From a virus (taxonomy: Duplodnaviria; Caudoviricetes), in the IMG/VR virus record IMGVR_UViG_3300021373_001027, positions 1,381 to 65,380 of that record: a stretch of DNA of 64,000 nt. One strand, given 5' to 3'. Position numbers and translations under genes: made by a program. The notes beneath the pieces are model-generated. The model did no database searches. It worked only from the letters and a program-made list of their open reading frames with translations, and was not told where the DNA came from. How positions within the stretch are numbered: position 1 is the first letter of the stretch; every line of letters starts with the position of its first letter. Below are positions 12,601 to 56,968 of the stretch, piece after piece.

Positions 12601-13345
12601 CTGTAGGCTGTTTGCCATTAAGAGCGGTTTGCAGTCCATCTACGTTAGCAATTATATGATTATGGCTGTCGTCAGCTACTACAATGGCGTTATAAGTACC
12701 ACTTACGTCACCGCCAAATGCAGTAGATGTGGTTAGATAGTTACCCGTAGGCTGTTTGCCATTAAGAGCGGTTTGCAGTCCATCTACGTTAGCAATTATA
12801 TGATTATGGCTGTCGTCAGCTACTACAATGGCGTTATAAGCACCTGAAACGTCACCGCCAAATGCAGTAGATGTAGTTAGATAGCTACCTGTAGGCTGTT
12901 TGCCATTAAGAGCGGTTTGCAGTCCATCTACGTTAGCAATTATATGATTATGGCTGTCGTCAGCTACTACAATGGCGTTATAAGCACCTGAAACGTCACC
13001 GCCAAATGCAGTAGATGTAGTTAACCCATCTGTAATTAAAGCTTGCGCTTCATCAGCGGGGAGGTCTACAAACACATTTTTTACGCCACTGGCGAAATTA
13101 ACTAAGCTGCCTCCATTACTGGAAGCCTTAACTGTAGTGCGACTTAAGGTTGAGGCGTTGTACGTTCCAACTCCAACTTCCCACGCATTATTAAAGTTAT
13201 CAACAATAACGTAGAAAGTAGTGTCACCATTTGACAAAACTGAACCAAAGGTGACGAAATTTGCTGCCGCACCGGCTAGAGTAACCGCTCCCGTTCCGGT
13301 TGAGGTTGTGGTTTCCTGAACCCGATCCGCTAGAGCAAAAGGCAT
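9668..13345 (-). CDS. Long tail fibre with C-terminal peptidase S74 chaperone
   Basis: N-terminal LADRVQETTTSTGTG anchor; SSDKRLKENI...GVLAQEI...VQYEKIVPLLIEAIKEQ; internal tandem repeats. Confidence 0.85.
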   Translation of the reverse strand: MPFALADRVQETTTSTGTGAVTLAGAAANFVTFGSVLSNGDTTFYVIVDNFNNAWEVGVGTYNASTLSRTTVKASSNGGSLVNFASGVKNVFVDLPADEAQALITDGLTTSTAFGGDVSGAYNAIVVADDSHNHIIANVDGLQTALNGKQPTGSYLTTSTAFGGDVSGAYNAIVVADDSHNHIIANVDGLQTALNGKQPTGNYLTTSTAFGGDVSGTYNAIVVADDSHNHIIANVDGLQTALNGKQPTGSYLTTSTAFGGDVSGTYNAIVVANDSHTHAFNNLTSKTAGTGDYLTTGDFGSGENSGGVAMTVNDGYGNANLTFNHRNGTPDNTSVTQSACRIEATTDSNTGSLSFEISNSTIQDTPVALTQVMYMSTLLINAKVNLNAEAGLDVTGNITVTGTVDGVDIGTNAPNWNAAYNDKINSVGWTSSNYTLTLTQQDAGTLTQVIDTWDNVVLGGSGTIGGNTWANGTFHLGSGTSGWAMDANEFYNSGAGIIGTLASTLTLNPSTSTTTSKPILLGSTVTLSGLSAQASEATALMINGSNVVGTRELGSNAFTSTAYYPDSNPDGYNNYVHPVAAGDDINIDTGALTGATVISDLDFNITTNTLGHVTDANGTVATRNLTLANLGYTGATNANNYVHPVAAGDDINIDTGALTGATVISDLDFNITTNTLGHVTDANGTVATRTLTPDNIGATGLQPTARGMGWEGTYGAASAAIAENAITWDNTEKCLAIKSNQGDTALAGAYRAVYAEAGATVRWTVTLKGSAADADGLYLRLYGYSGTVLPDGKTHVSNSSTNGSPFVQEDTTSDTGWYENGAVPSAWTTFERSWTVPATGYYSLVILNWSGFAGTIYVRQPDVSLVKPATAVLADTATTATSATTAATCTGNSATASKVTHSFGRADAATYPVLWGTATSTTQAFSCAAVKIKSSTAEVQADRFLINNGGTFFSDASGRIATTADFYVQASSGNTYLYSTNTYLGNTSGDSIRCRGNTISGNSWSMTGAGALSTVSATLTGALTGRVCTTATFTSANDAGSISIRGDATKPAVMSFHRVGTYAVNFGLDTDNHLKMGGWTATSIKHTWQNNGDYLAVGNITAYSSDKRLKENIVNIPNALDKVMSLNGVTFDWKEEKVKSLGFEPSIMVNEIGVLAQEIEAVIPQATAPAPFDLINVDGKQESKSGEDYLTVQYEKIVPLLIEAIKEQQEQIEELKDMVSKLTQC
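11278..11629. repeat. Two near-identical copies (198-bp period) inside the long tail fibre
   Basis: NNYVHPVAAGDDINIDTGALTGATVISDLDFNITTNTLGHVTDANGTVATR twice; DNA essentially identical. Confidence 0.9.
12517..13023. repeat. 144-bp tandem repeat, ~3.5 copies, inside the long tail fibre
   Basis: 48-aa unit TTSTAFGGDVSG[AT]YNAIVVADDSHNHIIANVDGLQTALNGKQPTG[SN]YL. Confidence 0.92.
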
Positions 13346-33731: not shown

Positions 33732-33760
33732 TTGACTCTAACGTGTTTAAAGCGTATAAT
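33732..33760 (+). promoter_or_regulatory. Sigma70-type early promoter
   Basis: TTGACT-17bp-TATAAT. Confidence 0.85.
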
Positions 33761-34250: not shown

Positions 34251-34266
34251 ATAACGGAGACTTACC

Positions 34267-34491
34267 ATGAATCGACTACGCAAATCCTCGTACCACTACA
34301 GTAACTATTCCCTCCGCACTACGGAGTCTATTCCCAGTGCACCGGTTACACCGTTCAACCCCGAGGCCGAAGGTCGGGTAACAACCCAGACCTACACCGG
34401 CTCACTGGTCAAGGGCATCGCAACGATGCACAAGTCTAACCTGATCCCTGTCACTTCGGGCATCGGGACTAATCCTAAAATCACAAGCTAA
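34267..34491 (+). CDS. Conserved phage hypothetical protein
   Basis: YTGSLVKGIATMHKSNLIPV motif, recalled from T4-like phage hypotheticals; RBS GGAGA. Confidence 0.7.
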   Translation: MNRLRKSSYHYSNYSLRTTESIPSAPVTPFNPEAEGRVTTQTYTGSLVKGIATMHKSNLIPVTSGIGTNPKITS

Positions 34492-34511
34492 GTTATACAC
34501 CGTGTATAACT
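34491..34511. promoter_or_regulatory. Dispersed palindrome, copy 4
   Basis: AGTTATAC-ACCGT-GTATAACT overlapping a TAA stop, just before RBS AAGGAG. Confidence 0.78.
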
Positions 34512-34525
34512 ATTAAGGAGAAAAA

Positions 34526-34873
34526 ATGGGAACAAGAAAAAGAAACATAGCCAACGCGATGTTATCAAGGCCATCGCAGATCGCCACTATTGTTAACAAC
34601 CTGCCTTGTCCACCCGATGCGATCATCGCGCAATCCCGAGACAACATGACAGTGCTAAAAGCTGTGATGCTCTGGGAGTTGTACGATGATTGGTCGTACG
34701 AGTTAGCGTTAAATAACTACGAGCGTCGTTCTCGGCATTACGTTAACGCGGCGTCTGTACTTAGTGACTGGTTAAAGAGTGAGTACAACATCAGACCGCT
34801 TGATGTGTTAATGCCCAACCCTGCACCAATAAACAACCCATTCAAAAAAATCTTTGGAGAAAACCATGACTGA
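34526..34873 (+). CDS. Hypothetical protein
   Basis: Strong RBS TAAGGAG; 115 aa. Confidence 0.65.
   Translation: MGTRKRNIANAMLSRPSQIATIVNNLPCPPDAIIAQSRDNMTVLKAVMLWELYDDWSYELALNNYERRSRHYVNAASVLSDWLKSEYNIRPLDVLMPNPAPINNPFKKIFGENHD
34849..34869 (+). repeat. 21-bp exact repeat spanning RBS and ATG (second copy 36001-36021)
   Basis: AATCTTTGGAGAAAACCATGA precedes both the DUF3150-like and AAA genes. Confidence 0.9.
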
Positions 34874-35768
34874 ACTAAACTTTAACACCCCCGATATTCA
34901 AACGGACGTATCCCTTGCCACTAGCGCGTGCCTTGTAAGCTGGAACGTATCGGCGTGGTCGGGCCGTAAGAAAGACACCAAGGCAGCGGGTAGCCTATCA
35001 ATGGCAACCGGCGCAACCACCAAATCTGTGTCTGTACATAAAAAGCTGATCAGCCTACCTGAGTTTGAAGCCATCAGTAAGCACGTTGGCTGGGTACGCA
35101 ATAACTTTCACTACACTAAGACCTTACCTTGGTCTGATACAGGCTTGCGGTTACTCGCCACCGAGGAGTTGTTCGACTACAAGCCACAAATGGAGGAACA
35201 CGCGCAGGAGTTCGATAGGCTTGTTCGTGAGTTCTTTTCAGTATACCTAGACGCGATCAACCGAGGTCGTAACGAGTTAGGTACGCTGTTTGACGAGACG
35301 CAGTACCCTACGCTGGACGAGCTTGCTAGTAAGTTCTCATGGCGTACGACGTTTATCCCTGTACCTACGAGTAATGACTTCCGCATTGATGTATCCCAAG
35401 TGCAGAAAGATAGCTTGGCGAGTGAGTACGAGGACTTCTATCAAGCTGAGATGAAGCGTGCAATGGATACCGTGTGGGTAGACTTGCATACGTCACTGGT
35501 AGAGCTAAGCCAGAAGCTTGACTTTGAAGCGGCTGGTAAGAAAAACAAGTTGTTTGCATCACGGCTGGATACCATACGCCAGCTAACCCGATTGCTGGGG
35601 TCATGTAACTTTACCAACGATCCCAAAATGTCTGCTATGCAGCGCAAACTGGCATCAGCGTTTGACGGCTTGACGGTGGAGCAGCTTCGCCACAGTGATT
35701 CATTGCGTGTCGAGACTAAAGCTGAGCTTGACGATGCTATCCGACAGCTTCCTAGTTTGGACTTCTAA
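34866..35768 (+). CDS. DUF3150-like protein
   Basis: SAWSGRKKD...TLPW...YP...KF pattern; upstream of AAA+VWA pair; start re-called at ATG after GGAGA. Confidence 0.55.
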   Translation: MTELNFNTPDIQTDVSLATSACLVSWNVSAWSGRKKDTKAAGSLSMATGATTKSVSVHKKLISLPEFEAISKHVGWVRNNFHYTKTLPWSDTGLRLLATEELFDYKPQMEEHAQEFDRLVREFFSVYLDAINRGRNELGTLFDETQYPTLDELASKFSWRTTFIPVPTSNDFRIDVSQVQKDSLASEYEDFYQAEMKRAMDTVWVDLHTSLVELSQKLDFEAAGKKNKLFASRLDTIRQLTRLLGSCNFTNDPKMSAMQRKLASAFDGLTVEQLRHSDSLRVETKAELDDAIRQLPSLDF

Positions 35769-35795: not shown

Positions 35796-36002
35796 ATGAA
35801 GTATTACGTTGAAGCATATTACGAGGATGGTGGTCAAATCCTCGGTAATCTGGACGGGCAAGCGGTGCTTAGGTGCCGCAACCCCCGTCGAACCAAGCAC
35901 TACCGTCATTTACAAGACGTTATTGCTCAAGGCAAGCACCCCAAAGTTTCGTACTACCGTATCGTAGACGAACATAACCGACTGTTTGAAACCATCATAT
36001 AA
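35796..36002 (+). CDS. Hypothetical protein
   Basis: 68 aa ORF filling the gap between palindrome and 21-bp repeat. Confidence 0.55.
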   Translation: MKYYVEAYYEDGGQILGNLDGQAVLRCRNPRRTKHYRHLQDVIAQGKHPKVSYYRIVDEHNRLFETII

Positions 36003-36017
36003 TCTTTGGAGAAAACC

Positions 36018-37106
36018 ATGAATGCATTAAAAACTTACGCTGTAAATTTTGAAGAAGCGGTGTCTGCTATCGTGAACCTTGGCGATGAGGTGACATACGT
36101 GTTTGAGGGTGATATGGGTATTGGCAAATCAGCCATGCTCAAAATGGTGGCCGAGGCACTGCCTAACCACGTACCCTGCTACTTCGATTGCAACACCAAA
36201 GACGTAGCCGATGCCTTTGTACCTGACATTTCTTCAGCGCAGACTGAGAATGTGGTACGTATGGTGCCTAACGCAGAGTTCGGTATTCAACACGGTAAAC
36301 CTGTTATCCTGATGATAGACGAGGTGGGTAAAGCCGAAGGTGCTTTGCTTAAAGCGTTGTTCGCAACGTTCCACGAGCGTAGCATTGGCATGACCCCGTT
36401 ACCCAAAGGCTCTATCGTCTTTGCAACAACCAATCTGGGAGCCGAGAATTTGGGTGACCTGATCCCTCCGCATGGCTTAGACCGTGTAACTAAAGTACGA
36501 CTCCGAAAGCCGACCCCTACTGAATGGATGGAGTGGGGCTTTAACAATGACATTCACCCTACCGTTCTGGCGTGGGTAAAAGACAATCCTCAGTTATTTA
36601 ATTCCTTCGACGATGTATCTTCCCCTGAAGATAATCACTACATCTACCACCCCAACGTTGTACGTGACGGGTTTGTAACTCCGCGTGGTCTGGAACGTGC
36701 ATCCAAGATCATTCACAAGATGGACTTGATTGGTGAGACTATGACACGTAGCTCTCTGATCGGTACGCTAGGTTCTCATGGTGCTGGTGATCTTATGGCG
36801 TTTGTGACATTGTTCAATCAAATCCCCTCGCATGATGCAATACTGTCTAGTCCAACTACGGCTATCGTACCTACTGATGCAGCGGCGGCTTGTATGGTGG
36901 TGGCGCGTGCACTTGTTAAGCTTGAAGCTAAGGACGTTTCTAAGTGGATGGAATACCTAGTACGTTTGGACAAAGGTGCACAAGTATTGTTTGGTCTACA
37001 AGCTAAGGCCAAAACCTACAAGCGTCAGAAAGCCGTTGTCAGTAACGGTGCGTTCAACAAGTGGGCGTTGGACAATAGTTATATCTTCAGTGCTGACAAG
37101 CAATAG
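36018..37106 (+). CDS. AAA+ ATPase (MoxR/dynein-related type)
   Basis: Walker A GDMGIGKS, Walker B ILMIDE, FATTN, TPRGLE. Confidence 0.85.
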   Translation: MNALKTYAVNFEEAVSAIVNLGDEVTYVFEGDMGIGKSAMLKMVAEALPNHVPCYFDCNTKDVADAFVPDISSAQTENVVRMVPNAEFGIQHGKPVILMIDEVGKAEGALLKALFATFHERSIGMTPLPKGSIVFATTNLGAENLGDLIPPHGLDRVTKVRLRKPTPTEWMEWGFNNDIHPTVLAWVKDNPQLFNSFDDVSSPEDNHYIYHPNVVRDGFVTPRGLERASKIIHKMDLIGETMTRSSLIGTLGSHGAGDLMAFVTLFNQIPSHDAILSSPTTAIVPTDAAAACMVVARALVKLEAKDVSKWMEYLVRLDKGAQVLFGLQAKAKTYKRQKAVVSNGAFNKWALDNSYIFSADKQ

Positions 37107-37175: not shown

Positions 37176-38465
37176 ATGAATATGTTGAATATTGGTATTA
37201 AGTTCACACTAGAACAGCGTCTAGATAAAGCGTTGGGTGATCTTATGGACGGCCCTCACGGACAGGCACGCTATCGTGCAATGGCTGGCATCTTTATGCT
37301 GGGTGACTGTTCAATCAGTGAAGAAGCCGGTGTAACAGCTTACACCAATGGCATTGACGAGGTGTATGGTCGTGCGTTCTTTGAAAACCTGAGTGACGCG
37401 CAGCTTCGCTATGTACGGGTGCACGAGAACAAGCACAAAATGTACAAGCACCCTTCGTTGTTCAAGTGGTTGTGGGATATAGATGCGGCAGCGGCAGGTG
37501 AAGCTACTGATCATTATATTAACTTACAGATAAACGACGAGAACCCCGATGGGTTTTGTAAGATGCCCACCGATGAGAACGGCGACCCAATGGGTTTTGC
37601 TAATCCTAAGTACAAAGGCAAAGACCCCGTTGCTATCTTCTGGGATATTGTCAATGCTAAGAAAGCTAACAATGACAATGGTGAAAGTGAGAGTGGTGAC
37701 GGTAAGAGTACTGAAGGTAATGGTGATGATAGCGGTGCGCCTAGTCCCGACGATGGTAATTTTGATGATCATGGTCACTTCGACGATGCGTTATCACCTG
37801 ATCAAGAAAAGCAAGTAGAGCGTGCTGTAGAGGACGCCATACGTCAAGGTCTACTGGCATCAAGCAAAAGCGGGAACGGCGACACGCTGGGTTTAGCTGA
37901 ACTAGTCGAACCCAAGGTTGATTGGAAAGTGGCACTTCGAGACTTCATACAAGCTAACTGTAAGGGTCGCAGGTTAACAACATATCGCAGACCCAACCGC
38001 AGGTTTATGGGGGCTAAGATATACCTACCAAGTTTATATGATCAACGTGTTGACGATCTTATCATTGCACCGGATTGCTCTGGTTCGATGCTGTCACCAA
38101 GGCAGTGGCAAACCATGCTCACCGAGTTACACGCGGCCATTAAAATGGTAACACCTAAACGTGTTCACATATTGTATTGGGACTCTAAAGTACGTAGGCA
38201 TGAAACGTACACTGAAGAAAAAGCCGATGATATTCTTAAGAGTGTTAAACCTGTAGGCGGCGGCGGTACTAATCCTGAGTGTATACCTCAGTACATACTT
38301 GATAATAAAATCAAGGGCCAGTGTGCCGTGGTGTTGACTGACGGTTACTTTTTCTACGGTCAAGGTGATTGGACTATGCCTGTACTCTGGGGTGTTATTG
38401 ACAATAAATCCTTTAAAGCTGCTAAGGGTAAAGCCTTGCACATTCAGTCGAGTAGCATACGATGA
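37176..38465 (+). CDS. Metallopeptidase-VWA protein (DUF2201-like)
   Basis: TAYTNG, HENKH (HExxH), MIDAS DCSGSM, GGGGT, LTDG. Confidence 0.85.
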   Translation: MNMLNIGIKFTLEQRLDKALGDLMDGPHGQARYRAMAGIFMLGDCSISEEAGVTAYTNGIDEVYGRAFFENLSDAQLRYVRVHENKHKMYKHPSLFKWLWDIDAAAAGEATDHYINLQINDENPDGFCKMPTDENGDPMGFANPKYKGKDPVAIFWDIVNAKKANNDNGESESGDGKSTEGNGDDSGAPSPDDGNFDDHGHFDDALSPDQEKQVERAVEDAIRQGLLASSKSGNGDTLGLAELVEPKVDWKVALRDFIQANCKGRRLTTYRRPNRRFMGAKIYLPSLYDQRVDDLIIAPDCSGSMLSPRQWQTMLTELHAAIKMVTPKRVHILYWDSKVRRHETYTEEKADDILKSVKPVGGGGTNPECIPQYILDNKIKGQCAVVLTDGYFFYGQGDWTMPVLWGVIDNKSFKAAKGKALHIQSSSIR

Positions 38466-44353: not shown

Positions 44354-45904
44354 ATGCAAGGAGACTGCATGGAGATTATAAAAAATAAAGCACTTAAGCT
44401 TAAAGTTAAGCATCCAAACCGAATCACTGAAGTTATACCAAAAAGCAAACAGGTGTCCACGCACGAAGTTCTGGTTAATTGGGGCTTACCGGAAACCAAG
44501 ATACTGCGGAATTTAAACATAAACGCCCCCTCCCCAATCGAACGTCAGTACGCTTGGACAGGCAAGTACACACCGTTCGATCATCAAATTACAACCTCAG
44601 CATTCTTTACCATGCACCGCAAATGCTTCTGCTTCAACGAAATGGGTACAGGTAAAACGGCTAGTGTGATATGGGCTTCAGATTTCCTGCTTAATAAAAA
44701 AGAAATTAACAGAGTACTCATTGTATGCCCGCTGTCCATCATGGACTCTGCGTGGCGTGCCGATCTGTTTACTTTTGCGATGCACCGGAAGGTGGACATT
44801 GCTCACGGTACACCGACTAAACGCCGAGCAATCATTAAAGGTGATGCAGAGTACGTCATTATAAATTACGAAGGTATTGAAATTGTCCGTGACGAAATTA
44901 TCAACGGCGGGTTTGACCTTGTTGTAATTGATGAAGCAAACGCATACAAGAACGCTAAGTCTAAACGGTGGAAGATACTAAACAGTTTACTGAATAAAGA
45001 TACACGACTATGGCTAATGACAGGTACACCCGCAGCGCAGTCCCCGCTTGATGCCTATGGTTTAGCAAAGCTAGTCAATGCTTCGGCAGTACCTCAGTTT
45101 TTCGGATCGTGGCGTGATCAAGTAATGAACAAAATCACTCAGTTCAAGTACGTGCCGAAAGCCGATGCCACGGATACAGTGTTTAGGGTATTGCAACCAG
45201 CAATACGGTTCACCAAAGCCGAATGCCTTGATCTGCCAGAAGTTACGATGGTCAAACGTAAGGTAGACCTGACGCCGCAGCAAGCTAAGTATTATAAAGA
45301 CATTAAAAATAAGATGGTCATAGCCGCTGATGGTGAAGAAGTTACCGCCGCTAACGCCGCTATTGTGATGAACAAACTACTGCAAATTAGCTCCGGTGCT
45401 GTCTACAGTGACAACGGTGAGTCCCTGATGTTTGATATAAAGAACAGGTACAAAGTTCTCAAGGAGGTCATAGACGAGTCAAGTCAAAAAGTTTTAGTCT
45501 TTGCTCCCTTCAAGCATGTAATTAGCTCCCTAACTGATAAGCTACGCGCAGATGGCTTGTCGTGTGAGATTATTTCCGGTGACGTTAGCGCGTCCAAACG
45601 CACTGAGATATTTAAAACGTTTCAACAAAACCCCGACCCTCAAGTGCTGATAATTCAACCACAAGCAGCCGCACACGGTGTTACGTTAACCGCAGCCAAC
45701 ACAGTTGTTTGGTGGGGGCCAACGTCCTCCCTAGATATTTTCTATCAAGCCAACGCTAGGATTCACAGAGCAGGGCAAAACCACAAGTGTACAGTGGTGC
45801 AGCTAAGTGGATCAGCGATTGAAGATCATGTTTACTCTTTGTTGGATCAAAGAATTGATGTTCACTCAAAAGTTGTCGATCTTTATAAACAATTACTTGA
45901 CTAA
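44354..45904 (+). CDS. SNF2-family helicase
   Basis: EMGTGKT, DEAN, MTGTP, HGVTLT, QANARIHRAGQ; start probably at MEIIK. Confidence 0.88.
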   Translation: MQGDCMEIIKNKALKLKVKHPNRITEVIPKSKQVSTHEVLVNWGLPETKILRNLNINAPSPIERQYAWTGKYTPFDHQITTSAFFTMHRKCFCFNEMGTGKTASVIWASDFLLNKKEINRVLIVCPLSIMDSAWRADLFTFAMHRKVDIAHGTPTKRRAIIKGDAEYVIINYEGIEIVRDEIINGGFDLVVIDEANAYKNAKSKRWKILNSLLNKDTRLWLMTGTPAAQSPLDAYGLAKLVNASAVPQFFGSWRDQVMNKITQFKYVPKADATDTVFRVLQPAIRFTKAECLDLPEVTMVKRKVDLTPQQAKYYKDIKNKMVIAADGEEVTAANAAIVMNKLLQISSGAVYSDNGESLMFDIKNRYKVLKEVIDESSQKVLVFAPFKHVISSLTDKLRADGLSCEIISGDVSASKRTEIFKTFQQNPDPQVLIIQPQAAAHGVTLTAANTVVWWGPTSSLDIFYQANARIHRAGQNHKCTVVQLSGSAIEDHVYSLLDQRIDVHSKVVDLYKQLLD

Positions 45905-45968: not shown

Positions 45969-46361
45969 GTGGACGTTTCTGTAGAGAAGTTAACCGGTAT
46001 TTACCTAAAAATAAAATCCAAACGAGACGTACTGTCTCGTGATTTCAAGCAAGAAGATGAACGTTTGAAAGTTCAACAAGACGCGATCAAGCAACGCCTT
46101 CTTGATTACTGCAAAGCGAACGAGATTGAGTCTGTTCGTACCGAAGCTGGTACGTTTTATCGTTCTATCAAAACTAAGTTCTGGACAAGTGATTGGGAGT
46201 CTATGCACAAGTTTATTCTTGAGCATGAAGTTCCTGAGTTTTTAACGAAGTCTTTGAACCAAGCTAATGTTAAGCAATTCATGGACGAAAACCCTACCCT
46301 TGTACCCGCAGGACTCAACGTTGATTCTGAGTATGTGGTATCCGTAAGAAAAGCAAAATAG
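45969..46361 (+). CDS. Conserved replication-module protein
   Basis: RBS AAGGAG; SVRTEAGT...DW...FI...PAGLN pattern. Confidence 0.65.
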   Translation: MDVSVEKLTGIYLKIKSKRDVLSRDFKQEDERLKVQQDAIKQRLLDYCKANEIESVRTEAGTFYRSIKTKFWTSDWESMHKFILEHEVPEFLTKSLNQANVKQFMDENPTLVPAGLNVDSEYVVSVRKAK

Positions 46362-47601: not shown

Positions 47602-50439
47602 ATGATCGCTTTAGATTTCTTTAAGGCGGTGCTGGGGGACTCTGGTTGGTATTGCGCGTTTAGTAAAGACCCAATAGTGCAAAAGTTCTATACAACAATA
47701 GAAGAACTTGACCACGTAACTAAACAGTTTAGCCAGAACAACAAAGATTCCTACTTCGCACTAGCTACATTTAAAAACGGGGACTCAAGGGAAAGCATCA
47801 ATGCCCTACAGATTAAGTCTTTCTTTGTAGACATTGACGCAGACCACGGAGCCATACGCTACGATAATAAACAGGAGGCCGTTTCAGAGTTAAGAGGTTT
47901 CTGTAAAGCTTTTGCTTTACCCAAGCCTGTCATTGTAGATTCGGGTGGAGGGATTCACGCTTATTGGATTCTTGATGAGCCTGTCTCAATGGACGAGTGG
48001 AAGCCGGTAGCTCTCAGCTTTCGGCAAGCTTGTATTGATCACGGTCTACGCATTGATCCTAAAGTCACAGGTGACGGCGGCAGGGTGTTAAGGACACCCA
48101 ATACGTATAACACTAGGTCAGATACGTATAGCAAGTTTTTAAGTGACACTGTTAACTACATACCCTTTTCCCTGTTTGCTGATAAGTTCGATACAGCGCC
48201 CGCGCCGGTACTGGTATCAAACAACATTGACCAAGCAGACAGCGCTTTGCTTAACTTACTGCAAAGTAACGTACAGGGTAGCTTCACCAAAATAGAAGAA
48301 AAGAACGAAGCCGGTGAAGGTTGTGCACAGCTAGACTACATACTCAAGCACCAAGACGAAGTTAGCGAACCGCTTTGGCGTGCAGGGTTGTCTATTGTAA
48401 AGTTTTGTGACGAGTACGATGAGGTAATGCATCGTATGTCAGAAAATCACCCTGAGTATGATGCGGGTGAAACTGAGTACAAGTTATCAAGAATCAAAGG
48501 CCCGTACAGGTGTAGCTCTTTTGAAGAAGAACGCCCTGAAGGTTGCGAAGGTTGTCCCCATAAAGGGCAGATAAACACCCCTTGGTCGCTGGGCATGAAG
48601 ATAGCTGAAGCCGAGGGCGAGGAAGTTGTCTCTGATTTGTTTGACGACCAAATAAGCTATGTGATTCCTGAGTACCCTAAACCCTACTTTAGAGGATTGA
48701 ACGGTGGCATATATATCCGTTCACAAACTCTAGCCGACGACGAGCCTGAAGAACGTTTGGTTTACCATAATGACTTATATGTAACCCGAAGAATACGTGA
48801 CCCAGAACTAGGCGAGTCTATTATTGTTACCTTAATTTTACCCCAAGATGGTAAAAAAGAGTTTGTATTACCGTTGACCGCTGCAACGTCACGCGAAGAA
48901 TTTAGAAAAGCTATGTCCCATCACGGCGTAGTTATGATGAAAATGGAAAACCTTATGGCCTATATACAGAAGTGGGTGGAGGAACTGCAATTGAAAAGCA
49001 AAGCTGATGAATCTAGGCGACAGTTTGGTTGGACTAAGAATTTAGAAGGTTTTGTAGTCGGGGCCGAAGAAATTACCAAAGACGAGATACTGATAAACCA
49101 CCCTTCGCCACCCACAGCTAGATTCTTTCCAGCGTTTGAACCTAAAGGCTCTTACGAGGACTGGCAAGTGATGATCGAAACTTACAATCGCCCTGATCTT
49201 GATGTGCACCAATTCTGTTTAGCCTTCTGTCTAGGATCGCCTCTGTTTGAGTTTATACCGAAGATTCAAGGCGGCGGTGTCCATTTGTTCAGTGGTGATA
49301 GCGGGTTTGGCAAAACGTCTGTCATGGACGCAGGGAACTCTATTTGGGGTGGCCCTAGCTTGCGAATTAAGGGCAAGGATACAGGCAACTTTACAATGAA
49401 CAGAGCAGAGATATGGAAAAACCTACCTTTGCTGATAGATGAAGTAGGAGATGTACCACCTCACGAACTAAGCGCACTCGCTATGGTTATGACGGACGGT
49501 GAGCAGAAAGGTCGAATGTCTAGCGGGGCCAATCAAGAGCGCATTAGGGGTGAGCCTTGGTCGCTAGGTGTAATGACCAACGGTAACAATAGCTTTATTG
49601 AACGTGTTTCTACCTTTAAGAACGTACCGCGTGCTGAAGCGCAGAGGATTCTAGAGTGGGAATGCGACGGTGTTAACTTCAATAAAAATGCTGAAGGGGG
49701 AGAAGAATCGGACAGGTTCAACGACCTTCTTGAGAAGAACTACGGGTGGGCTGGCCCGATATTCATTAGATATATATTAAGTAACAAGGAAGAAGTACAG
49801 AAACTTGTTACCAAGACGAGTCAAGTGCTTAACAAAAAGCTAAGGTTGGCAGTGCAAAATAGGGTTTGGAAAGCCAACCTAACCGTTGCAATTGCTGCGA
49901 ATATCATAGCTAACCGCCTTGGCATCTGGACATTCGATACCAATTTAATGCTGGCTACGAGTGCCAAAATCGTTAAGTATAATCGTGAAAAAGTGGTGAC
50001 AATTACCCGCAATGCAACAGAAACGTTGAACGAGTATGTGGCAGAGAATATACGTAATATATATATCATTAACAGCAAGAAGGATTTACGTAAGCAAGGC
50101 ATTCACAACAACGCATTGGACAGCTTGGTAAAGACCGTTGACCCTTACAAAGTGGTAGGTCGGCTAGAGCCTGATACTGAAATGCTGTACTTAGCCGTTA
50201 GTCCTCTACGCAAATGGTGCTTGGATCAAAGAGTGAATTACTCTGAGTTAGATCGTGACCTGTGCCGAAACCATAACGCCTATAGAAAGAACAAGCGCCT
50301 ATTGGCGGGACACAATCTTGACACCGGCCCAGTAAAAGCTCTATGGGTTAACGTTAAGGATATTCTAGACTTGGAAGATGAAGATGCACTACGTGAACTG
50401 GAAAAAATAGCAAGCCTAACAGAAGATGAAAACGATTAA
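47602..50439 (+). CDS. Primase-helicase (RepB/AEP-like primase, Cys cluster, DUF927-like ATPase)
   Basis: VDID, SGGGIHAYW, RVLR.P, CxxCPH, Walker A GDSGFGKT, LLIDE; start re-called at ATG after GGAGA. Confidence 0.8.
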   Translation: MIALDFFKAVLGDSGWYCAFSKDPIVQKFYTTIEELDHVTKQFSQNNKDSYFALATFKNGDSRESINALQIKSFFVDIDADHGAIRYDNKQEAVSELRGFCKAFALPKPVIVDSGGGIHAYWILDEPVSMDEWKPVALSFRQACIDHGLRIDPKVTGDGGRVLRTPNTYNTRSDTYSKFLSDTVNYIPFSLFADKFDTAPAPVLVSNNIDQADSALLNLLQSNVQGSFTKIEEKNEAGEGCAQLDYILKHQDEVSEPLWRAGLSIVKFCDEYDEVMHRMSENHPEYDAGETEYKLSRIKGPYRCSSFEEERPEGCEGCPHKGQINTPWSLGMKIAEAEGEEVVSDLFDDQISYVIPEYPKPYFRGLNGGIYIRSQTLADDEPEERLVYHNDLYVTRRIRDPELGESIIVTLILPQDGKKEFVLPLTAATSREEFRKAMSHHGVVMMKMENLMAYIQKWVEELQLKSKADESRRQFGWTKNLEGFVVGAEEITKDEILINHPSPPTARFFPAFEPKGSYEDWQVMIETYNRPDLDVHQFCLAFCLGSPLFEFIPKIQGGGVHLFSGDSGFGKTSVMDAGNSIWGGPSLRIKGKDTGNFTMNRAEIWKNLPLLIDEVGDVPPHELSALAMVMTDGEQKGRMSSGANQERIRGEPWSLGVMTNGNNSFIERVSTFKNVPRAEAQRILEWECDGVNFNKNAEGGEESDRFNDLLEKNYGWAGPIFIRYILSNKEEVQKLVTKTSQVLNKKLRLAVQNRVWKANLTVAIAANIIANRLGIWTFDTNLMLATSAKIVKYNREKVVTITRNATETLNEYVAENIRNIYIINSKKDLRKQGIHNNALDSLVKTVDPYKVVGRLEPDTEMLYLAVSPLRKWCLDQRVNYSELDRDLCRNHNAYRKNKRLLAGHNLDTGPVKALWVNVKDILDLEDEDALRELEKIASLTEDEND

Positions 50440-50629
50440 CCCTGATGGGGTTTTAGTAAACGTTTACTGGGAAGCCGCTGTTCGCGGCAGCTCTTTTTTT
50501 ATACCCTGCATAAACGTAAGCAAGGCTAAACTGCAAGTTAAAAGAGTAGCTAAAGACAAAGAGTTAAGTATAAAGAGCAAGACTGTAATTGAGCATGGTA
50601 TTATTGGGTTGCGTGTTTGGATTCAATAA
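50426..50629 (+). CDS. Small conserved protein at end of replication module
   Basis: GSSFFIPC...GLRVW pattern. Confidence 0.65.
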   Translation: MKTINPDGVLVNVYWEAAVRGSSFFIPCINVSKAKLQVKRVAKDKELSIKSKTVIEHGIIGLRVWIQ

Positions 50630-50638
50630 GGATATAAT
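50609..50638 (+). promoter_or_regulatory. Sigma70-type promoter with no downstream CDS
   Basis: TTGCGT-18bp-TATAAT. Confidence 0.55.
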
Positions 50639-50643
50639 CGGAT

Positions 50644-50715
50644 ACCGCTTTTGTCATGGGGAGCGGTTATTCATGGTAGTCTCCTTACTTTGCCCCCTAC
50701 TTAGGGGGCTTTTTT
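50644..50715 (+). ncRNA. Candidate trans-acting small RNA antisense to early-gene translation starts
   Basis: Promoter, 5' hairpin, core TATTCATGGTAGTCTCCTTA, terminator; core complementary to 34252-34272, 36008-36023, 34856-34869, 37165-37182. Confidence 0.6.
50692..50715 (+). terminator. Rho-independent terminator at the convergence of the two arms
   Basis: GCCCCCTA-CT-TAGGGGGC followed by T6. Confidence 0.8.
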
Positions 50716-53700
50716 ATAGCTCCAAGGCTGACTTAGCAAGTTCCGCTTCAGTTTTGTCCCTGTATCGTATACCCATAACTCTATCTTCAACGGCCTTCAT
50801 TCTAGCTCTAAATGATCGGTCAAAGGTTCCGTTTTCGCCAAGCTTAATTGCAAACTTAGAGTTTGCTGGTAACGACTTGTTAAACTCTACAGCTTCCTTA
50901 AGCTCATCGGCGTAACCTGCACCGTCACCAACGCGGTACGCAAGCCAAGCTCTCTTTAAGATCAATGATCTTCGTTCTGCTCGGTTACCTTCTATGTACT
51001 TCTGGTTAGATATAAACCTCTGAGACTCTGTGACTTCTGTAGGTGCAAAGCCAATAACTTGCCCGAACAACGATAGCACTCCGAAATCATCGGTGATCAT
51101 ATCCCCGCTAGTGGTTTTAGCTCCATCCGATCTGTACCTGTTAGCTTTAAGCGCGTTGCTAATTGCAGGGGGCAATATAGCTTCCCACATTCTTCCCCAA
51201 TCACCTCTCTGATAAGAACTGTAGCCTCTTGGAATACGCGATACGGTTCCCCATACAGGGCCAAGCGCTAAGGTAGCGTACAGTTCGGCGGGTGTTTGAT
51301 CGTAGTTACGGTTGCTGCGGTAGAGCATATCCGTAAGTGCAATCCTGTCGGCAACGTTTACACCCAAAAGACTATTCACAACACCAGACGATGCACCAAT
51401 GCCAATTCGCTTACGTAGCATGTTATCAAAATCGTCTTCTTCACCATCACTTAAAAACAAATTGTAAAGAGCAGCAAAAATACCCATCAGCGGGATGCCT
51501 CTTACTCCCGCAAACGCAGCCGATGCGAGGTAGACGTTAAATATCTGATCCCTCGCTGCCTTCCTAATCTCAGGGGTTTCTCCCGCTAGCATATCCTTTG
51601 CCATCTTAAACTGTAGATACATCATGCGTGAGCCATAGCTCTTATACATAAAGGCCATTGACATTAGCGGTTTTTGCCCAAAGCGCGTGTTAGACAAGGT
51701 GGACATTGCACCGTTCACCATCTGACTATCACTAATGGCATCTAGCGCGGCCTTCTCGTAATCTATCTTATCTCCCGCCTTCCTTTGATCCTCCAACCTA
51801 AACCTATAGCTGGCTAGAATCGTAGCTTCCCTTCGCACTCGTTCACTGCTTGACATGAGTGAACCCATTAAGTTGTTCAAAACAGACATGAATCTGTTTT
51901 CACCTGTCATTTCGCCGCTGTCTGATCTAAGTGCAAGTTGGTGAACTTGGCCGTATTGTCGCATGGCCTCAACAAGCGGTCTTAGTTCTCGCGAGTTTTT
52001 ATCGTTACCGCTTAAGTCCATATTAACCAGCGAATACCACGCCCCTATCTTACGCGTATCTCTTTCTCCAAGACCTTTTTCTTTAATCTCTTTGTCGCTA
52101 AGCCCTTTAGTGGTGTAGCTTTCCACCGAGGTCTTAAACGGCGTACTCATAACGTCTTTTACAGCTTTTAAAACGGCCTTATTGGTTTCCACAATGCCTC
52201 TGTCAAACTTAGAATTAAGATGCGGGGCAATAACCATCGGTAACGCAAAGGTATCAATAAGCGCTGAAGATACGTTCAAGCCCAGAGTCCAACCATACGC
52301 CGCTGTCTTAGCATAGTTAGCCATGTCCGTTACGGTTCCCGTAATAGGGTTACGTGCTAGTGCTATTCTCTTTTTCAGTTCTTCGCCTATGATTAGCTTT
52401 CTTTCGTTTTCTGCACTGTTGTTATCCGATGCAATAATCTTCATTTCAGCATCAAGCTCAGCTTCAGTTCTAGAAAGCTCATCCCTCATCTTCATGCTGT
52501 TTATCTTTCTTGCAAGATCAGTCAACGAAGACTCATAGACCTTAACAACATCATTGTTGTATCCAGCTTTACCTGTACGTTTCTTTAACGCATTCAATAC
52601 AGTTCTTTGCGGAGCGGCTTCGATAGCTGTTCGTATAAGTTCTTCTTTGATTGCCTCAGTTTCAGGTGTATCGCCTAACCTGTTAATAAGCTGTAAACTT
52701 TTACCCACAAAGCTGTAAGGTATTCTATCGCCAGTCAGGTAGTCCGTTAGCTTTGTGGGTGTTCTGATAAGGTCAACCTGTGCTGGTTCTAGCAGGTTTT
52801 CTTTAAGAAACTCTACACGCGCATCCCGTTCGGTTGAGCTAGTGAACATCTCAAACGCATCTCTCGTCTTGCCGTCTGCGTCAGTAAAAGTGAAAGACAG
52901 AAGATAATCACCTCTACGCTGCAAAGGGAAGTATCCTTCAAGCGCGTTGTTCTTAAAGTGTTCGTACAATTCGCTGTATATCTTACTACCCGTCTCAGGG
53001 TCAATCGCCCCCAATGCCACCTCTAACTGCTTAAGCAGGTCTTGATACATGCGGTCATAGTTAGACCTAACCTTATTGTATTCAAGCTGCCCTCCGTTGT
53101 CCTTCAAGCGATTCCATACAGGTTCTAGCTTTTCGTATGCCGCTTTCTGTTCACCTCTGTACTCATTCTTAGCTTTTCTAAAGTCAATCTGAGCCAAAGT
53201 GCCGTCCAGTAAAACCTGCTTTAAATCGCTTAAAGCTTCAGTGTTTTGCTTTCCCCACACTTGCAAGTCTTTTGCAGCAGTTTCCGCAATTGCTTGCTGA
53301 TCGCCATACAACCGACCTTCGTACTCACTGATTGTCGTAAGTATGCGATCAGCCGACTTAAAGCTATCCTTAGCTGTATCAACGACTAAAGATAACTGTA
53401 AAGAACCTAGCATGGGGCCGAGGCTTGCATTGCTAAGCCTTCTAAGTGCACTCATCCCAACGGCTTTTGTTGTTGAGCCTCCATCGAACAACCCAAGCAC
53501 TTTATTGTTGTCAGTGAGCAAGTTATAAACTTTACCAGTAGCAGCGGTGGCGCTGGGAGCAAGCAACTGTTCCATTGTATCGTTAAGGTCACGACGCGTT
53601 GCTACGTTTCCAAACAAACGTTTTATTGCGTCTGTCAAGCGTTGAAACATACTTTGTCGTTGCTTATCACTAGGTAGCATGAAGCTGAGTTCCCTGCGAA

Positions 53701-56700
53701 AATCAGGGTTGCCAAAGTACTCCGCGACAAATTCATGTATACTTGATGTTGCGTAACTAGCAGGAAGTTTAGACTTAGCTTGCTCGTATAGCTTTGCTAT
53801 TTTTCTAGCAGCAGGGTTTGATTTGTTGTTAATTTGTTTATGAGTTAAAGCGTGAGCAATTTCGTGTAATACAGAATGGTTGGTTACCGACTCACCTTCA
53901 AGTATGTATACCGTATTATTGCTAATCCGATACTGACCTTTAACTAAAACACCCTCTACGTCACCCAAGTCTTTAACAAACTCAACTTTTAGGTCACCTA
54001 CTAATTCAGAAAACAACTTAGCAATACGTGAAAGTGACCCAGTTTCCCGGCGAGATATTATGTTTAAGGCTTCTTGCACATCACCACTTCTGAGTGCAGC
54101 GGCAGCGGCACTGTCCATAGGTGCTGCTACGTCTAGCAAACCTTCTTCAGCAAGCATATTAAAATCAGACTCAGATAAACCGAATGCGGCTAGGTCGCTC
54201 TCGGCATCGCTCAATGCGCCGGTTTCTTCAGCGGTAGAGTCTACGGCATCGTCAATTATTTGCTGCTGTTTCTTGGCGGCTTGGCGTTCCCTTCGACTTT
54301 CTTGAGCTTCCTCAGACTCGCTCTTGCGTTGTCTTTCTTCAGCTTGGCGCTGTTCCATTGCTTTTCTGGCAGCGACCCGATCATCAAAAGCTTGGCGTTG
54401 TTCAGCTTGACCTTTGTTGGCTTCTATTAATACATCAACTTCTTTTTGCGCTTTACTTAAAGCTTTCTTTTGAGCAGCAGTGCCTTTGTTTTCTATGAAC
54501 TTAACAGCAAGTTTAGCGCGTTGCCTGCTCGTCCCCTCTAGTTCTTTACGAACACGGGGGCTACCTTCTTCTGAGATTCTGTTAGCTGTTTCGTTGCTAG
54601 TGTACCCAAGCTCAGACGCGTCAAAAGCCAGCCGTCTAGCAGCGTCGTCAGGTTTGAACTTACCAAAGTAAGTCTTAATGACATTTACATCTTTGACGGA
54701 GCCTTTCTTGCTTGTTTGTACTTGCTTAACGTCCTTGATTTTTTTGTCGGCTACAACAGCAGCGACCTTATCTTCAGGATCGACGGGTTTTTTAACTTCG
54801 ACTTTAGGCTTGGGCGCTAGTGTATCAGGCTTAGTTCTTTTTCTGCTTCTAGTATCTGGTACGTTACCCCCAGTACTTGCCACGCTAGGCTGTCTAACGT
54901 CTCCAGCGACGGGGGTAGGTCGTTTTGCAGTAGGTAAAGGTCGCCTTGGCTGCTTGCTTCTGACGCCTCCGCTAGTACTTTTAGCGCTAGTTCCATCTGT
55001 TCCTGTGTCAAATTTAACAGCGGGTTCGACATTAGCGGGTTCCGTTACTTTTTTTTTACTCGCAGGGGTTTTTGCAGCAAGTGCTTTCGCTGCATCTACA
55101 GCCGCTTTTTTGTTGGGTATCGCCCTGCCTCTTTTATCGACGCCAAACAATCCAACATTAGAACCAAAGCCACTTTTATCATCAAAGAACTTTGTCATTA
55201 AGAACTTAGTTCTGTTGTTACCGTTCTTGTTCGCAAAGGTTTGAAGTTCTCTTTTTACCAAAGCCTTGTCTTGTGGGTTGTTTAAATCTTTACCCTTAAC
55301 TCTGGCCCGCACTGGTGCGTTCTTGGGAATGTCAAATGAATTTAACAACTGGTCGTTTACTACAACCGGTTTTGCTAGGGGTGTAGCTTCGGCCTTAGCT
55401 TGAGGTACAACGGGAGGTTTAGCTTTTGCTCCACGAAACTTATCTTGAACTCTACCCAACGGCTGACCCTTAGCACCCAACATGCGACCTTGCACTGGGG
55501 CTGGGGTTTGATCGGTGGTAACGTCAAGTTCACCTTGAATTGTTTGCGTAGGCAGCTTTGTCTGTGGCTCTGCTTTCGGCGTAGCTTTAGCTTCTTGAAG
55601 GTCGCGAGGAAATAAATCCCGTTGACCGTCTGAGTCTGCAAGAATCTCTCGCAATGCGCGATCAATTTGCTCATCGGTCATGTTCTCTATAAGAAGGTCA
55701 TCGTCTGCATTAATATCTAAGCCGCTGAGAGTAGGCTTTGCTTCTTCTTCGCTACGGGCTTTTTGTATTCGCTCATTAACGTTGGCGTTAATAGCTCGGT
55801 CACGTTCTGAAGGCTGCGGAAGGGCAAGCTGTCCTGTAGGCTCCCTTACATTTTCTATCTCGGCAAGAGCGGCGTCTAAGATAGAATCATCAACGGGACG
55901 CTGAGGCATGTTCATTTGAGATGGCTTGCGGCTTCTAGGTTCTTCTAACGATAAAGAATCTAGTCTGTCTAGTAGACTATCAAGATCGTCAACCTCAACG
56001 GGACGCTGAGGCATGTCCATTTGAGTAGGTCTAGCTCGCCTTGCGTCTATAGAGGGCACACCCATATCCGTAGGGTCAAAAGCCGATGGCTGTAAAGGCG
56101 CATCGGTAGAAATATCGGACGCTTCTAACAACTCCGATTCTATATCAGGGGCATCTTCAGACGATGCGGCACTTCCTCGCCGTGGAACTAATGCACCTAC
56201 GATAGCACCGACAGCCGCGCCAATACCGCCCGACTCTAAAACGTTATCCATCAGCGATTCTAATTCAGGATTGTAAATCTTGCGCTCGGTTACGTTTTGC
56301 AGGTACTCGTAAACAGCTTCTTGTGCGCCTTCGTAGGAACCGCTCTTGGCAGCGTCAACTACCTTACCCTTAATGCCGTTAGGTAATGCCTGTGCAAGCT
56401 TAAATATTCTTTGGATAGGAAGGGCTTGTGTGGCACCGATTGCAGTACCGGACAGTGCAGCTTGGCTTCGTTGTTCCTCTGTAGCACCAGCGGCTCTAGC
56501 TCTCTCAGATGCATCTCCTGCACCAGCAGCCGAACCTAATCCTGCCCCCGCCACCACACCCGCTACAGGGCCACCCACAAGACCGGCAGCTAGATAGGGG
56601 CCGATTGAACCTAGACCTTCAACGACTTTAGTTAAAGTGTCATCTTCAAGTCCCGGCTCTCGCTCTGGCCTTAGAGTTTCTGCTGAACTCTTAATAAAAT

Positions 56701-56968
56701 CTCTGGTCTTACTTTCATATTCTTCGGGCAACAATGTCGCTAAACCCAAAGCACCAAGTTCACCAGTGTTCACTGCCCCGCGACCTAACGCGGGAAAAAA
56801 GTCACCAAAGCGCTCACCGATAGTAACTTCTTCAGCGTCTCTGGCTTTGATTCTATCCGTTATTTCTTTTTGACGAACTAATGAAGCAAGCTGTCTGCGG
56901 CCAATGCCTTCTGGCCCTTCAATTTCAACAACTTGTCCATTTTGCTTAGTGACTTCATAAATCGGCAT
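50714..56968 (-). CDS. Large internal virion/ejection polyvalent protein (zincin-like HExxH, PLxRFG-like)
   Basis: 2084 aa, last late gene; G/A-rich hydrophobic segments near N-terminus, HEIAH...HEFVAE, YFPLQRRGDY. Confidence 0.7.
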   Translation of the reverse strand: MPIYEVTKQNGQVVEIEGPEGIGRRQLASLVRQKEITDRIKARDAEEVTIGERFGDFFPALGRGAVNTGELGALGLATLLPEEYESKTRDFIKSSAETLRPEREPGLEDDTLTKVVEGLGSIGPYLAAGLVGGPVAGVVAGAGLGSAAGAGDASERARAAGATEEQRSQAALSGTAIGATQALPIQRIFKLAQALPNGIKGKVVDAAKSGSYEGAQEAVYEYLQNVTERKIYNPELESLMDNVLESGGIGAAVGAIVGALVPRRGSAASSEDAPDIESELLEASDISTDAPLQPSAFDPTDMGVPSIDARRARPTQMDMPQRPVEVDDLDSLLDRLDSLSLEEPRSRKPSQMNMPQRPVDDSILDAALAEIENVREPTGQLALPQPSERDRAINANVNERIQKARSEEEAKPTLSGLDINADDDLLIENMTDEQIDRALREILADSDGQRDLFPRDLQEAKATPKAEPQTKLPTQTIQGELDVTTDQTPAPVQGRMLGAKGQPLGRVQDKFRGAKAKPPVVPQAKAEATPLAKPVVVNDQLLNSFDIPKNAPVRARVKGKDLNNPQDKALVKRELQTFANKNGNNRTKFLMTKFFDDKSGFGSNVGLFGVDKRGRAIPNKKAAVDAAKALAAKTPASKKKVTEPANVEPAVKFDTGTDGTSAKSTSGGVRSKQPRRPLPTAKRPTPVAGDVRQPSVASTGGNVPDTRSRKRTKPDTLAPKPKVEVKKPVDPEDKVAAVVADKKIKDVKQVQTSKKGSVKDVNVIKTYFGKFKPDDAARRLAFDASELGYTSNETANRISEEGSPRVRKELEGTSRQRAKLAVKFIENKGTAAQKKALSKAQKEVDVLIEANKGQAEQRQAFDDRVAARKAMEQRQAEERQRKSESEEAQESRRERQAAKKQQQIIDDAVDSTAEETGALSDAESDLAAFGLSESDFNMLAEEGLLDVAAPMDSAAAAALRSGDVQEALNIISRRETGSLSRIAKLFSELVGDLKVEFVKDLGDVEGVLVKGQYRISNNTVYILEGESVTNHSVLHEIAHALTHKQINNKSNPAARKIAKLYEQAKSKLPASYATSSIHEFVAEYFGNPDFRRELSFMLPSDKQRQSMFQRLTDAIKRLFGNVATRRDLNDTMEQLLAPSATAATGKVYNLLTDNNKVLGLFDGGSTTKAVGMSALRRLSNASLGPMLGSLQLSLVVDTAKDSFKSADRILTTISEYEGRLYGDQQAIAETAAKDLQVWGKQNTEALSDLKQVLLDGTLAQIDFRKAKNEYRGEQKAAYEKLEPVWNRLKDNGGQLEYNKVRSNYDRMYQDLLKQLEVALGAIDPETGSKIYSELYEHFKNNALEGYFPLQRRGDYLLSFTFTDADGKTRDAFEMFTSSTERDARVEFLKENLLEPAQVDLIRTPTKLTDYLTGDRIPYSFVGKSLQLINRLGDTPETEAIKEELIRTAIEAAPQRTVLNALKKRTGKAGYNNDVVKVYESSLTDLARKINSMKMRDELSRTEAELDAEMKIIASDNNSAENERKLIIGEELKKRIALARNPITGTVTDMANYAKTAAYGWTLGLNVSSALIDTFALPMVIAPHLNSKFDRGIVETNKAVLKAVKDVMSTPFKTSVESYTTKGLSDKEIKEKGLGERDTRKIGAWYSLVNMDLSGNDKNSRELRPLVEAMRQYGQVHQLALRSDSGEMTGENRFMSVLNNLMGSLMSSSERVRREATILASYRFRLEDQRKAGDKIDYEKAALDAISDSQMVNGAMSTLSNTRFGQKPLMSMAFMYKSYGSRMMYLQFKMAKDMLAGETPEIRKAARDQIFNVYLASAAFAGVRGIPLMGIFAALYNLFLSDGEEDDFDNMLRKRIGIGASSGVVNSLLGVNVADRIALTDMLYRSNRNYDQTPAELYATLALGPVWGTVSRIPRGYSSYQRGDWGRMWEAILPPAISNALKANRYRSDGAKTTSGDMITDDFGVLSLFGQVIGFAPTEVTESQRFISNQKYIEGNRAERRSLILKRAWLAYRVGDGAGYADELKEAVEFNKSLPANSKFAIKLGENGTFDRSFRARMKAVEDRVMGIRYRDKTEAELAKSALEL

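Follow-up and report, generated by a model that had tools for sequence, protein, structure and literature searches.

The window analysed here, 64 kb of a 65,380-bp viral sequence with direct terminal repeats, contains two sets of genes that run towards each other across a gap of 84 nt, and the question raised by this locus is whether the gap is simply the place where two transcription units end or a functional unit of its own. The plus-strand arm, from approximately 33.8 to 50.6 kb, carries replication genes (ATPase, DUF2201 VWA/metallopeptidase protein, DNA polymerase, exonuclease, SNF2 helicase and DUF927 primase); structural genes occupy the minus strand to its left. A giant gene encoding 2084 amino acids (50714-56968, stop codon at 50714-50716) converges on the plus-strand arm from the right. 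Residues 1698-2072 of its product match a DarB-like antirestriction PHROG (E 8e-36), and the protein has no match in Pfam. The original prediction held that the gap specifies a small RNA which pairs in trans with the ribosome-binding sites and start codons of several early genes and silences them as a timing switch. This interpretation is partly supported by the data presented below, which suggest that the gap most likely encodes a regulatory RNA of about 75 bases, kept in dozens of distant relatives of this uncultured marine phage.

The last gene of the plus-strand arm (50426..50629, +) encodes 67 amino acids and precedes the RNA in nearly all relatives; its product has no match in Pfam or among PHROGs. 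Differences from the copy of this gene in L002, a relative with 95% primase identity, are mostly synonymous, on which evidence the ORF is a real gene. It follows that the -35 sequence described below, which falls in the 3' end of the gene, sits in coding sequence, with the -10 just beyond the stop codon. A terminator-like hairpin with a T-run is found inside the 67-aa coding sequence (50474-50500). The hairpin (50474-50491) had suggested that the ORF might be spurious, an idea ruled out by the synonymous character of the L002 differences and by the interruption of the T-run in that relative.

On the plus strand, the interval 50609-50715 contains a -35/-10 pair, a 5' hairpin, an exposed CU-rich core and an intrinsic terminator. 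The -35-like hexamer, TTGCGT (50609..50614, +), lies within the last codons of the 67-aa gene and reads TTGCGC in L002 and TTGCGG in L102. It is separated by an 18-nt spacer, also present in these two relatives, from the -10 box TATAAT (50633..50638, +), located 4 nt past the stop codon. A promoter scan of the window did not call this pair, because the -35 agrees with the consensus in just 3 of its 6 bases. This weak hexamer could also be conserved simply as a consequence of the conserved C-terminus of the small protein. As to the type of promoter, the phage appears to use sigma-70-type sequences, to judge from a near-consensus TTGACT-17-TATAAT (11/12; 33732-33760) that heads the plus-strand replication arm. 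The predicted RNA (77 nt) has an MFE fold of -29.9 kcal/mol (z = -3.1), with 2 of 200 shuffled sequences being as stable. Its 5' hairpin in this fold, H1 (50640..50672, +), exposes a GUCAUG loop. The seed (50665..50691, +), which joins an anti-start CAT to an anti-SD CUCC, includes the core TATTCATGGTAGTCTCCTTA singled out in the original prediction (50668-50687), and its UCUCC pentamer has an unpaired probability of 0.86. The terminator, GCCCCCTACTTAGGGGGC followed by T6 (50692..50715, +), consists of a 7-bp GC stem and a loop of 4; it is called on the plus strand only, and there is overlap between its T-run and the stop codon of the 2084-aa gene that converges on it. Promoter hexamers and spacing, core and plus-only terminator are all found at the positions originally reported. 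The hairpin quoted there as ACCGCTT/GAGCGGT is likewise present within 50640-50672, but its MFE stem is longer than the quoted one. Contigs from four DNA runs were compared with the window over 49900-51400. Two of them (X7 and X10) do not reach the gap; the others (X6 and X9) show no listed difference between 50507 and 50794, against 12 over 49900-51127 in X6, numbers too small to speak of constraint. A search of public sequencing runs listed none of RNA that contains the phage, a result with no bearing on its expression.

Within the window's own clade, the two relatives with 95% primase identity, L002 and L101, show 4 differences in about 105 nt (50585-50690) and an identical seed (over 50665-50686 in L002). 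L102, a 79% relative, keeps TATAAT and the 18-nt spacing; its hairpin sequence is entirely replaced, and a hairpin still forms. Further afield, a blastn search of 50000-51500 against cultured phage genomes returned no match, and the best primase match in cultured phages has 24.6% identity (tblastn). IMG/VR contains hundreds of relatives with approximately 40% primase identity. Most of these share a conserved order, comprising the primase, a small gene, a gap of 75-95 nt and a convergent giant gene. Read 5' to 3' on the plus strand, the gap displays a TAnnnT box starting from the stop codon of the small gene, a hairpin of variable sequence, a CU-rich stretch (often GTCGTTCTCCT) and a terminator made of a GC-rich hairpin and a T-run that adjoins the stop codon of the giant gene.

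A covariance model, R1, was built from a three-sequence alignment (A5) only, two MAFFT alignments of diverse elements (A2 and A3) having been dropped for misaligning the hairpins. R1 yielded 27 sites, and the model made from these, R2, yielded 46 sites when run on both strands of 62 sources (675,966 bases). All of the R2 sites are on the plus strand and 45 are in the syntenic gap. The window is one of them: positions 50640-50714 score 28.2 bits, with an E-value of 0.011 in the 62 sources and of 0.0012 in a two-source search. The window version is divergent, as this score shows, and the R2 alignment register differs from its MFE hairpin, so that its membership of the family rests mainly on synteny and layout. 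It follows the small gene that comes after the primase, adjoins the stop codon of the convergent giant gene and has a single-stranded CU-rich stretch between hairpin and terminator. L002, L101 and L102 match R2 with E-values of 0.13-0.43 only. Searching 19 further loci added six plus-strand matches downstream of the primase, with E-values of at most 0.011 in the MAG-binned contigs L104, L111 and L106 and of 0.41-0.82 in L102, L101 and L105.

The junction is visible in 53 loci. R2 matches 40 of them at E≤1; the layout can be recognized by eye in 11 more (L002, L016, L026, L039, L049, L050, L051, L058, L065, L066 and L076), and two (L004 and L033) have gaps of 19-20 nt without the element. The layout also occurs in MAG-binned contigs labelled Rhodobacteraceae, Sulfitobacter, Parvibaculum, Bacillota, Methylopumilus, Nanopelagicales and Polaromonas. 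Relatives L104-L121 come from bins named Rhodobacteraceae, Sulfitobacter, Parvibaculum, Methylopumilus, Nanopelagicales, Polaromonas and others; since the binning of phage contigs is unreliable, these names may be host hints or binning artefacts. L075 offers a variation on the theme: a 132-aa gene (L075:8066-8464) is inserted between the small gene and the element, which stays at the terminator and keeps a box of its own (TATATT or TACATT).

Structure and strand were examined in the alignment of the 46 R2 sites, where pairing is seen in 92.9% of the cells (67.3% in shuffles; 45-57% when the partners are slid) and both sides have changed in 15 of 16 pairs; the alignment of the 27 R1 sites gives 95.5% and 16 of 16, both sets of pairing counts being inflated by the fitting of the rows to the model structure. 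For the individual helices of the family, the figures are 92.3% paired with both-side changes in 6 of 6 pairs (H1) and 93.2% with 9 of 10 pairs (terminator). G:U and U:G cells number 58, as compared to 10 for A:C and C:A (46 rows), and both the T-run and the -10-like box are confined to the plus strand. The box, T[GA][AG]TAnnnT counted from the small gene's stop codon, is found in 38 of 46 rows; it is kept with TAA, TAG or TGA as the stop and after the gene insertion in L075 (see above). A TAA or TAG stop brings the hexamer nearer to the consensus (TATACT; TATAAT in the window), while the TG of a TGA stop presumably falls at the extended -10 position. Predicted RNA lengths across the 46 members range from 56 to 105 nt, and the last CU-rich pentamer has an unpaired probability above 0.5 in 39 of them (median 0.98, versus 0.50 for the RNA body). 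What distant relatives keep in the syntenic gap is thus the plus-strand small-RNA unit that had been proposed from the window, with box, hairpin, exposed CU-rich seed, terminator and covarying helices. Taken together, these features make it highly probable that the element is a conserved, structured RNA read from the plus strand.

Pairing of the core (50665-50691) was evaluated against 71 translation initiation regions (TIRs) of the window. The best duplex, -27.5 kcal/mol, involves the TIR of the 74-aa gene at 34267. Mean duplex energy is -15.4 for the replication arm, as against -13.2 and -12.0 for the other arms (Mann-Whitney p=0.015). When compared with 300 cores shuffled everywhere but in CAT and CTCC, the core stood out in its best duplex (P=0.027), in having at least six TIRs at -20 or below (P=0.047) and in its mean (P=0.007). 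Among 71 pseudo-seeds derived from real TIRs, 5 have an equally good best match and none equals either the mean of the core or its 17 TIRs at -17 or below. It would appear from these comparisons that the core pairs with window TIRs moderately beyond chance. Since no pseudo-seed from a real TIR pairs as broadly (0/71), the reverse complement of the core is, by this measure, nearer to an idealised TIR of the phage than any real TIR. Such a likeness is compatible both with an anti-TIR RNA and with a minus-strand sequence that resembles a TIR, and the two cannot be fully separated from sequence alone. The decisive support for the element comes from the relatives and not from the window alone.

Ranking of 79 TIRs by accessibility-corrected energy placed 34267, 36018 (ATPase), 41170 and 34866 in the top four positions. 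The predicted targets in the window are thus the 74-aa gene (34267-34491; TIR 34252..34275, +; -27.5 kcal/mol, or -14.8 after correction; rank 1 of 79), the ATPase gene (36018-37106; TIR 36003..36026, +; -21.5; rank 2; PHROG 1297, ATPase), the 300-aa gene (34866-35768; TIR 34851..34872, +; -20.2; rank 4), whose TIR is identical in G001 from -30 to +8, and the SNF2 helicase gene (44369-45904; TIR 44355..44372, +), which has a 9-nt exact complement. All the gene-start matches quoted in the original prediction (34267, 34866, 36018, 37176 and 47602) exist. The targets that it named at 34267, 36018 and 34866 rank first, second and fourth, but the VWA gene at 37176 falls outside the top eight. The replication arm pairs better than the other arms (see above), yet a late gene, that for the major head protein (23648), scores like some of the named targets, as does the SNF2 helicase gene (44369). 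The 300-aa and ATPase genes have an identical 20-nt initiation region leading into the start codon (34846-34872 and 35998-36024), and these shared regions are unchanged in a 95% relative in which the surrounding DNA is 83-87% identical.

The seed of L102, GTTCATAGGTAAGTCTCCAAAGGG, could be compared with the TIRs of the window only, its own targets being out of reach on a 3.7-kb contig. Its reverse complement holds GGAGACTTACC, an 11-nt string identical to the 34267 TIR of the window, as well as TTTGGAGA, the motif of the 34866, 36018 and 47602 TIRs. In G001, a 95% relative, the insertion of an extra small ORF (G001 12540-12770, pieces L087) has changed what lies upstream of the ortholog of the 74-aa gene, which nevertheless keeps an 11-nt match to the RNA across its start codon.

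If the RNA addresses gene starts of its own genome, seed and TIRs should change together across relatives. The RNA body of each locus (after the box, before the terminator) was compared with the plus-strand TIRs lying within 5 kb upstream in the same locus, and with those of the 45 other loci. The mean longest exact complement is 5.96 for cognate and 5.51 for non-cognate combinations, and matches of at least 9 nt are found for 10.4% and 3.1% of TIRs, respectively (permutation P<1/5000). A control with reversed sequences of the same composition gave P=0.70 and 0.20, and the sense strand P=0.017 and 0.31. Among the 46 RNAs, the cognate one comes first in 9 loci and within the top three in 19 (median rank, 10); it falls below third place in 27 of the 46 loci. 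The complementarity between seed and TIRs is thus genome-specific, and their co-variation is partial.

It is the sequences flanking GGAG that carry the matches, and they vary from genome to genome. The G002 seed GTTCTCCAGA corresponds to a TIR motif, TCTGGAGAAC, that is present exactly in 4 TIRs and with 9 of 10 bases in 2 more. Other seeds and their TIR motifs are GTTCTCCATT and AATGGAGAAC in L079, ATTCTCCAAA and TTTGGAGAAT in L077, AGTTCTCCTTTG and CAAAGGAGAACT in L010, and ACATTCTCCTGTT and AACAGGAGAATGT in L064 and L067, where the seed is in the hairpin loop. G003 has no TIR with a match of at least 8 nt. In a test of five complete genomes, which are not all independent since the window and G001 are close relatives, matches of at least 9 nt occur in 16 of 148 same-strand TIRs versus 3 of 225 opposite-strand ones (Fisher p=6e-5); among GGAG-bearing TIRs of the same genomes the counts are 16 of 74 versus 2 of 55 (p=0.003). 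The long matches are thus found mostly on the replication arm. Two orthologous genes are recurrent best partners in relatives: the 130-aa gene (45969-46361 in the window), whose TIR is the most frequent match to the cognate RNA, with 13/42 cognate as against 161/1848 non-cognate combinations, and the SNF2 helicase gene, whose TIR has a match of at least 9 nt to the cognate RNA in 8 of 38 relatives (non-cognate pairs, 59 of 1672). For the TIR of the small gene itself, the count is 0 of 36. The product of the 130-aa gene bears the PHROG label "minor head protein" (phrog_13900, E 2e-17) despite its location in the replication arm.

We regard the element as belonging to a new and widespread family of phage small RNAs with what looks like an anti-ribosome-binding-site seed. 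A plus-strand RNA of about 75 nt would arise at the 3' end of the replication operon, either from its own sigma-70-type promoter, or as the operon's 3' UTR, or both, and would consist of a protective 5' hairpin, the single-stranded CU-rich seed and the intrinsic terminator of that operon. The window's seed combines an anti-SD with an anti-start-codon stretch. The seed would pair with the SD and start-codon regions of several mRNAs of the phage's own replication module (those of the 74-aa gene, the ATPase, the 300-aa gene and the SNF2 helicase in the window) and block binding of the 30S subunit, so that translation of the module would fall as the RNA accumulates. Transcription of the unit is inferred, as is repression rather than another outcome of pairing, and we lean, by a small measure, towards seed pairing with replication-module TIRs that lowers their translation as the way in which the RNA works. 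A function in temporal shut-off is plausible, since the unit ends the operon that it would repress and would accumulate with it. It is also conceivable, more tentatively, that the system constitutes a private translational address, with replication mRNAs sharing an extended TIR motif that goes beyond the generic SD and is lineage-specific, and a single small RNA carrying the anti-motif, the two drifting together; this would make it an RNA counterpart of RegA-type shut-off that spares host and late messages.

Other readings of the gap have to be weighed against these data. The region could be no more than the 3' untranslated end of the replication operon, its hairpin and terminator serving stability or termination, its CU stretch some other purpose such as protein binding or a ribosome-free 3' end, and its TIR complementarity being an anti-SD side effect. 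The terminator is indeed common to the operon, which needs one anyway; the promoter is predicted only, with a weak -35; and neither the 27 loci that lack a top-three cognate preference nor G003, devoid of extended matches, speak for a dedicated regulator. However, a generic anti-SD sequence would not have CUCC flanks that vary by genome and match the genome-specific GGAG flanks, with a composition control that is null, nor does an untranslated end account for a -10-like box that persists whichever of the three stop codons is used and even where a gene has been inserted. A 3' UTR would, moreover, be capable of the same pairing. On balance this explanation seems rather unlikely. We give somewhat less credit still to the notion that the RNA is real but directed chiefly at host mRNAs, or that it mimics the 16S anti-SD and damps host translation globally, matches to phage TIRs being secondary. 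Many relatives have a second CCUCC-type motif in the hairpin loop, CCUCC being described as the anti-SD core (PMC6288834), and there is a precedent in phage small RNAs such as lambda PreS, reported to act on host genes (bioRxiv 10.1101/2024.10.31.621285). Host targeting does not predict, however, co-variation with the TIR flanks of the phage itself, or the bias towards one arm, as seen in comparisons made among phage TIRs only.

The possibility that the minus strand is the functional one, as a relic or decoy ribosome-binding site downstream of the giant gene or as a translated mini-ORF (MNNRSP in the window), finds some favor in the strong SD and ATG present on that strand in the window, L002 and L102, opening frames of 6, 6 and 16 codons. 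R2 also weakly matches the reverse complement of an ordinary hairpin and RBS at 34488-34567, so an arrangement of this kind easily mimics the model. Yet the peptides from these three frames differ in length and sequence, and a conserved minus-strand ORF, the finding that was to count against the original prediction, was looked for in the 46 elements and did not emerge: 27 lack an SD and start, 6 have ATG, and the ORFs range inconsistently from 6 to 82 codons and specify unrelated peptides. The G:U evidence (58 vs 10) favors the plus strand, to which the -10 box and the T-run are restricted, and a minus-strand function is accordingly judged very unlikely. A CsrA-type GGA decoy on the minus strand was set aside on the same strand evidence. 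Least probable, in our estimation, is a cis-antisense or insulator function in convergent transcription, in which the plus-strand RNA would pair with late read-through from the giant gene. Lacking a T-run on the minus strand, the hairpin may let transcripts of the giant gene read through, and the element is always at the point of convergence; but such a function gives no account of a conserved CU-rich seed with genome-specific flanks next to a hairpin whose sequence drifts.

Interpreted as a small RNA that pairs with TIRs, the element can be placed beside known regulators. The c4 antisense RNA of phages P1 and P7 is described as acting in trans on the phage's own mRNA by pairing around the RBS through loop-exposed sequences (PMC12197685); it controls a single antirepressor operon in temperate phages and is processed from the same transcript. 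The likeness, on that description, lies in a phage-encoded small RNA with proposed trans pairing near the RBS of the phage's own mRNAs; unlike c4, the present element apparently addresses many replication genes in an apparently lytic lineage. There is no sequence likeness to c4, and no C4 match in an Rfam scan at E≤10. Under the private-address reading, the variation of the code among related phages could also serve to tell co-infecting relatives apart, a function that c4 has in P1 and P7. LhrC is described as using CU-rich motifs, in a loop and in a single-stranded stretch, to pair with the SD of several targets (PMC4132741), and a C- or CU-rich seed, several mRNAs and SD masking are features that the element would share with LhrC, RsaE and similar RNAs. 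The latter are bacterial and chromosomal, whereas here the seed flanks track lineage-specific TIR flanks; homology to them was compared through Rfam only, in which no family reaches threshold.

Small RNAs of the 3'-UTR type represented by DapZ are bacterial; their promoter lies inside the 3' end of the upstream gene, whose intrinsic terminator they share. The candidate promoter of the present element similarly overlaps the 3' end of the preceding gene, and the terminator is shared. RegA is a protein through which a phage turns off the translation of several of its early mRNAs by acting on their initiation regions. T4 RegA, classed as a translational repressor in a review (PMC3014915), is proposed as an analogue of the element in logic only, the two being unrelated.

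A full-text search of a limited literature collection, which is not proof of absence, retrieved no description of this RNA family. The RNA was recognized through comparative genomics, in a lineage of uncultured aquatic phages without a close cultured relative, and a covariance model recovers it in dozens of genomes. To our knowledge, lytic phages have yielded few regulatory RNAs, nearly all of them from cultured model phages. Should the pairing be functional, the element would make it possible to test how a single RNA co-evolves with many initiation regions and to read replication (presumed early) and late programmes solely from the sequence of uncultured phages; it would also supply compact, orthogonal repressor/TIR pairs and a new family for RNA databases.

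Rfam 15 has no family at gathering threshold anywhere in the window, and only sub-threshold matches between 50300 and 51000. The best of these, to positions 50643-50717 and 50678-50716, involve anti-hemB (RF02837) and the Betaproteobacteria toxic small RNA (RF02278), which resemble the element in being small RNAs that end in a terminator; with 21.8 bits against a required 49.5 and 22.5 against 50, the element is not a member of either family. The match to DapZ, a family found in bacteria and not in phages, is elsewhere (50435-50501) and scores 20.1 against 56 bits. Across 13 relatives, the sole Rfam match at threshold lies away from the element, in L075: an int-alpA RNA (RF02996; L075:4907-4978), scoring 41.8 bits against a gathering threshold of 35.8, is located just upstream of the primase gene.
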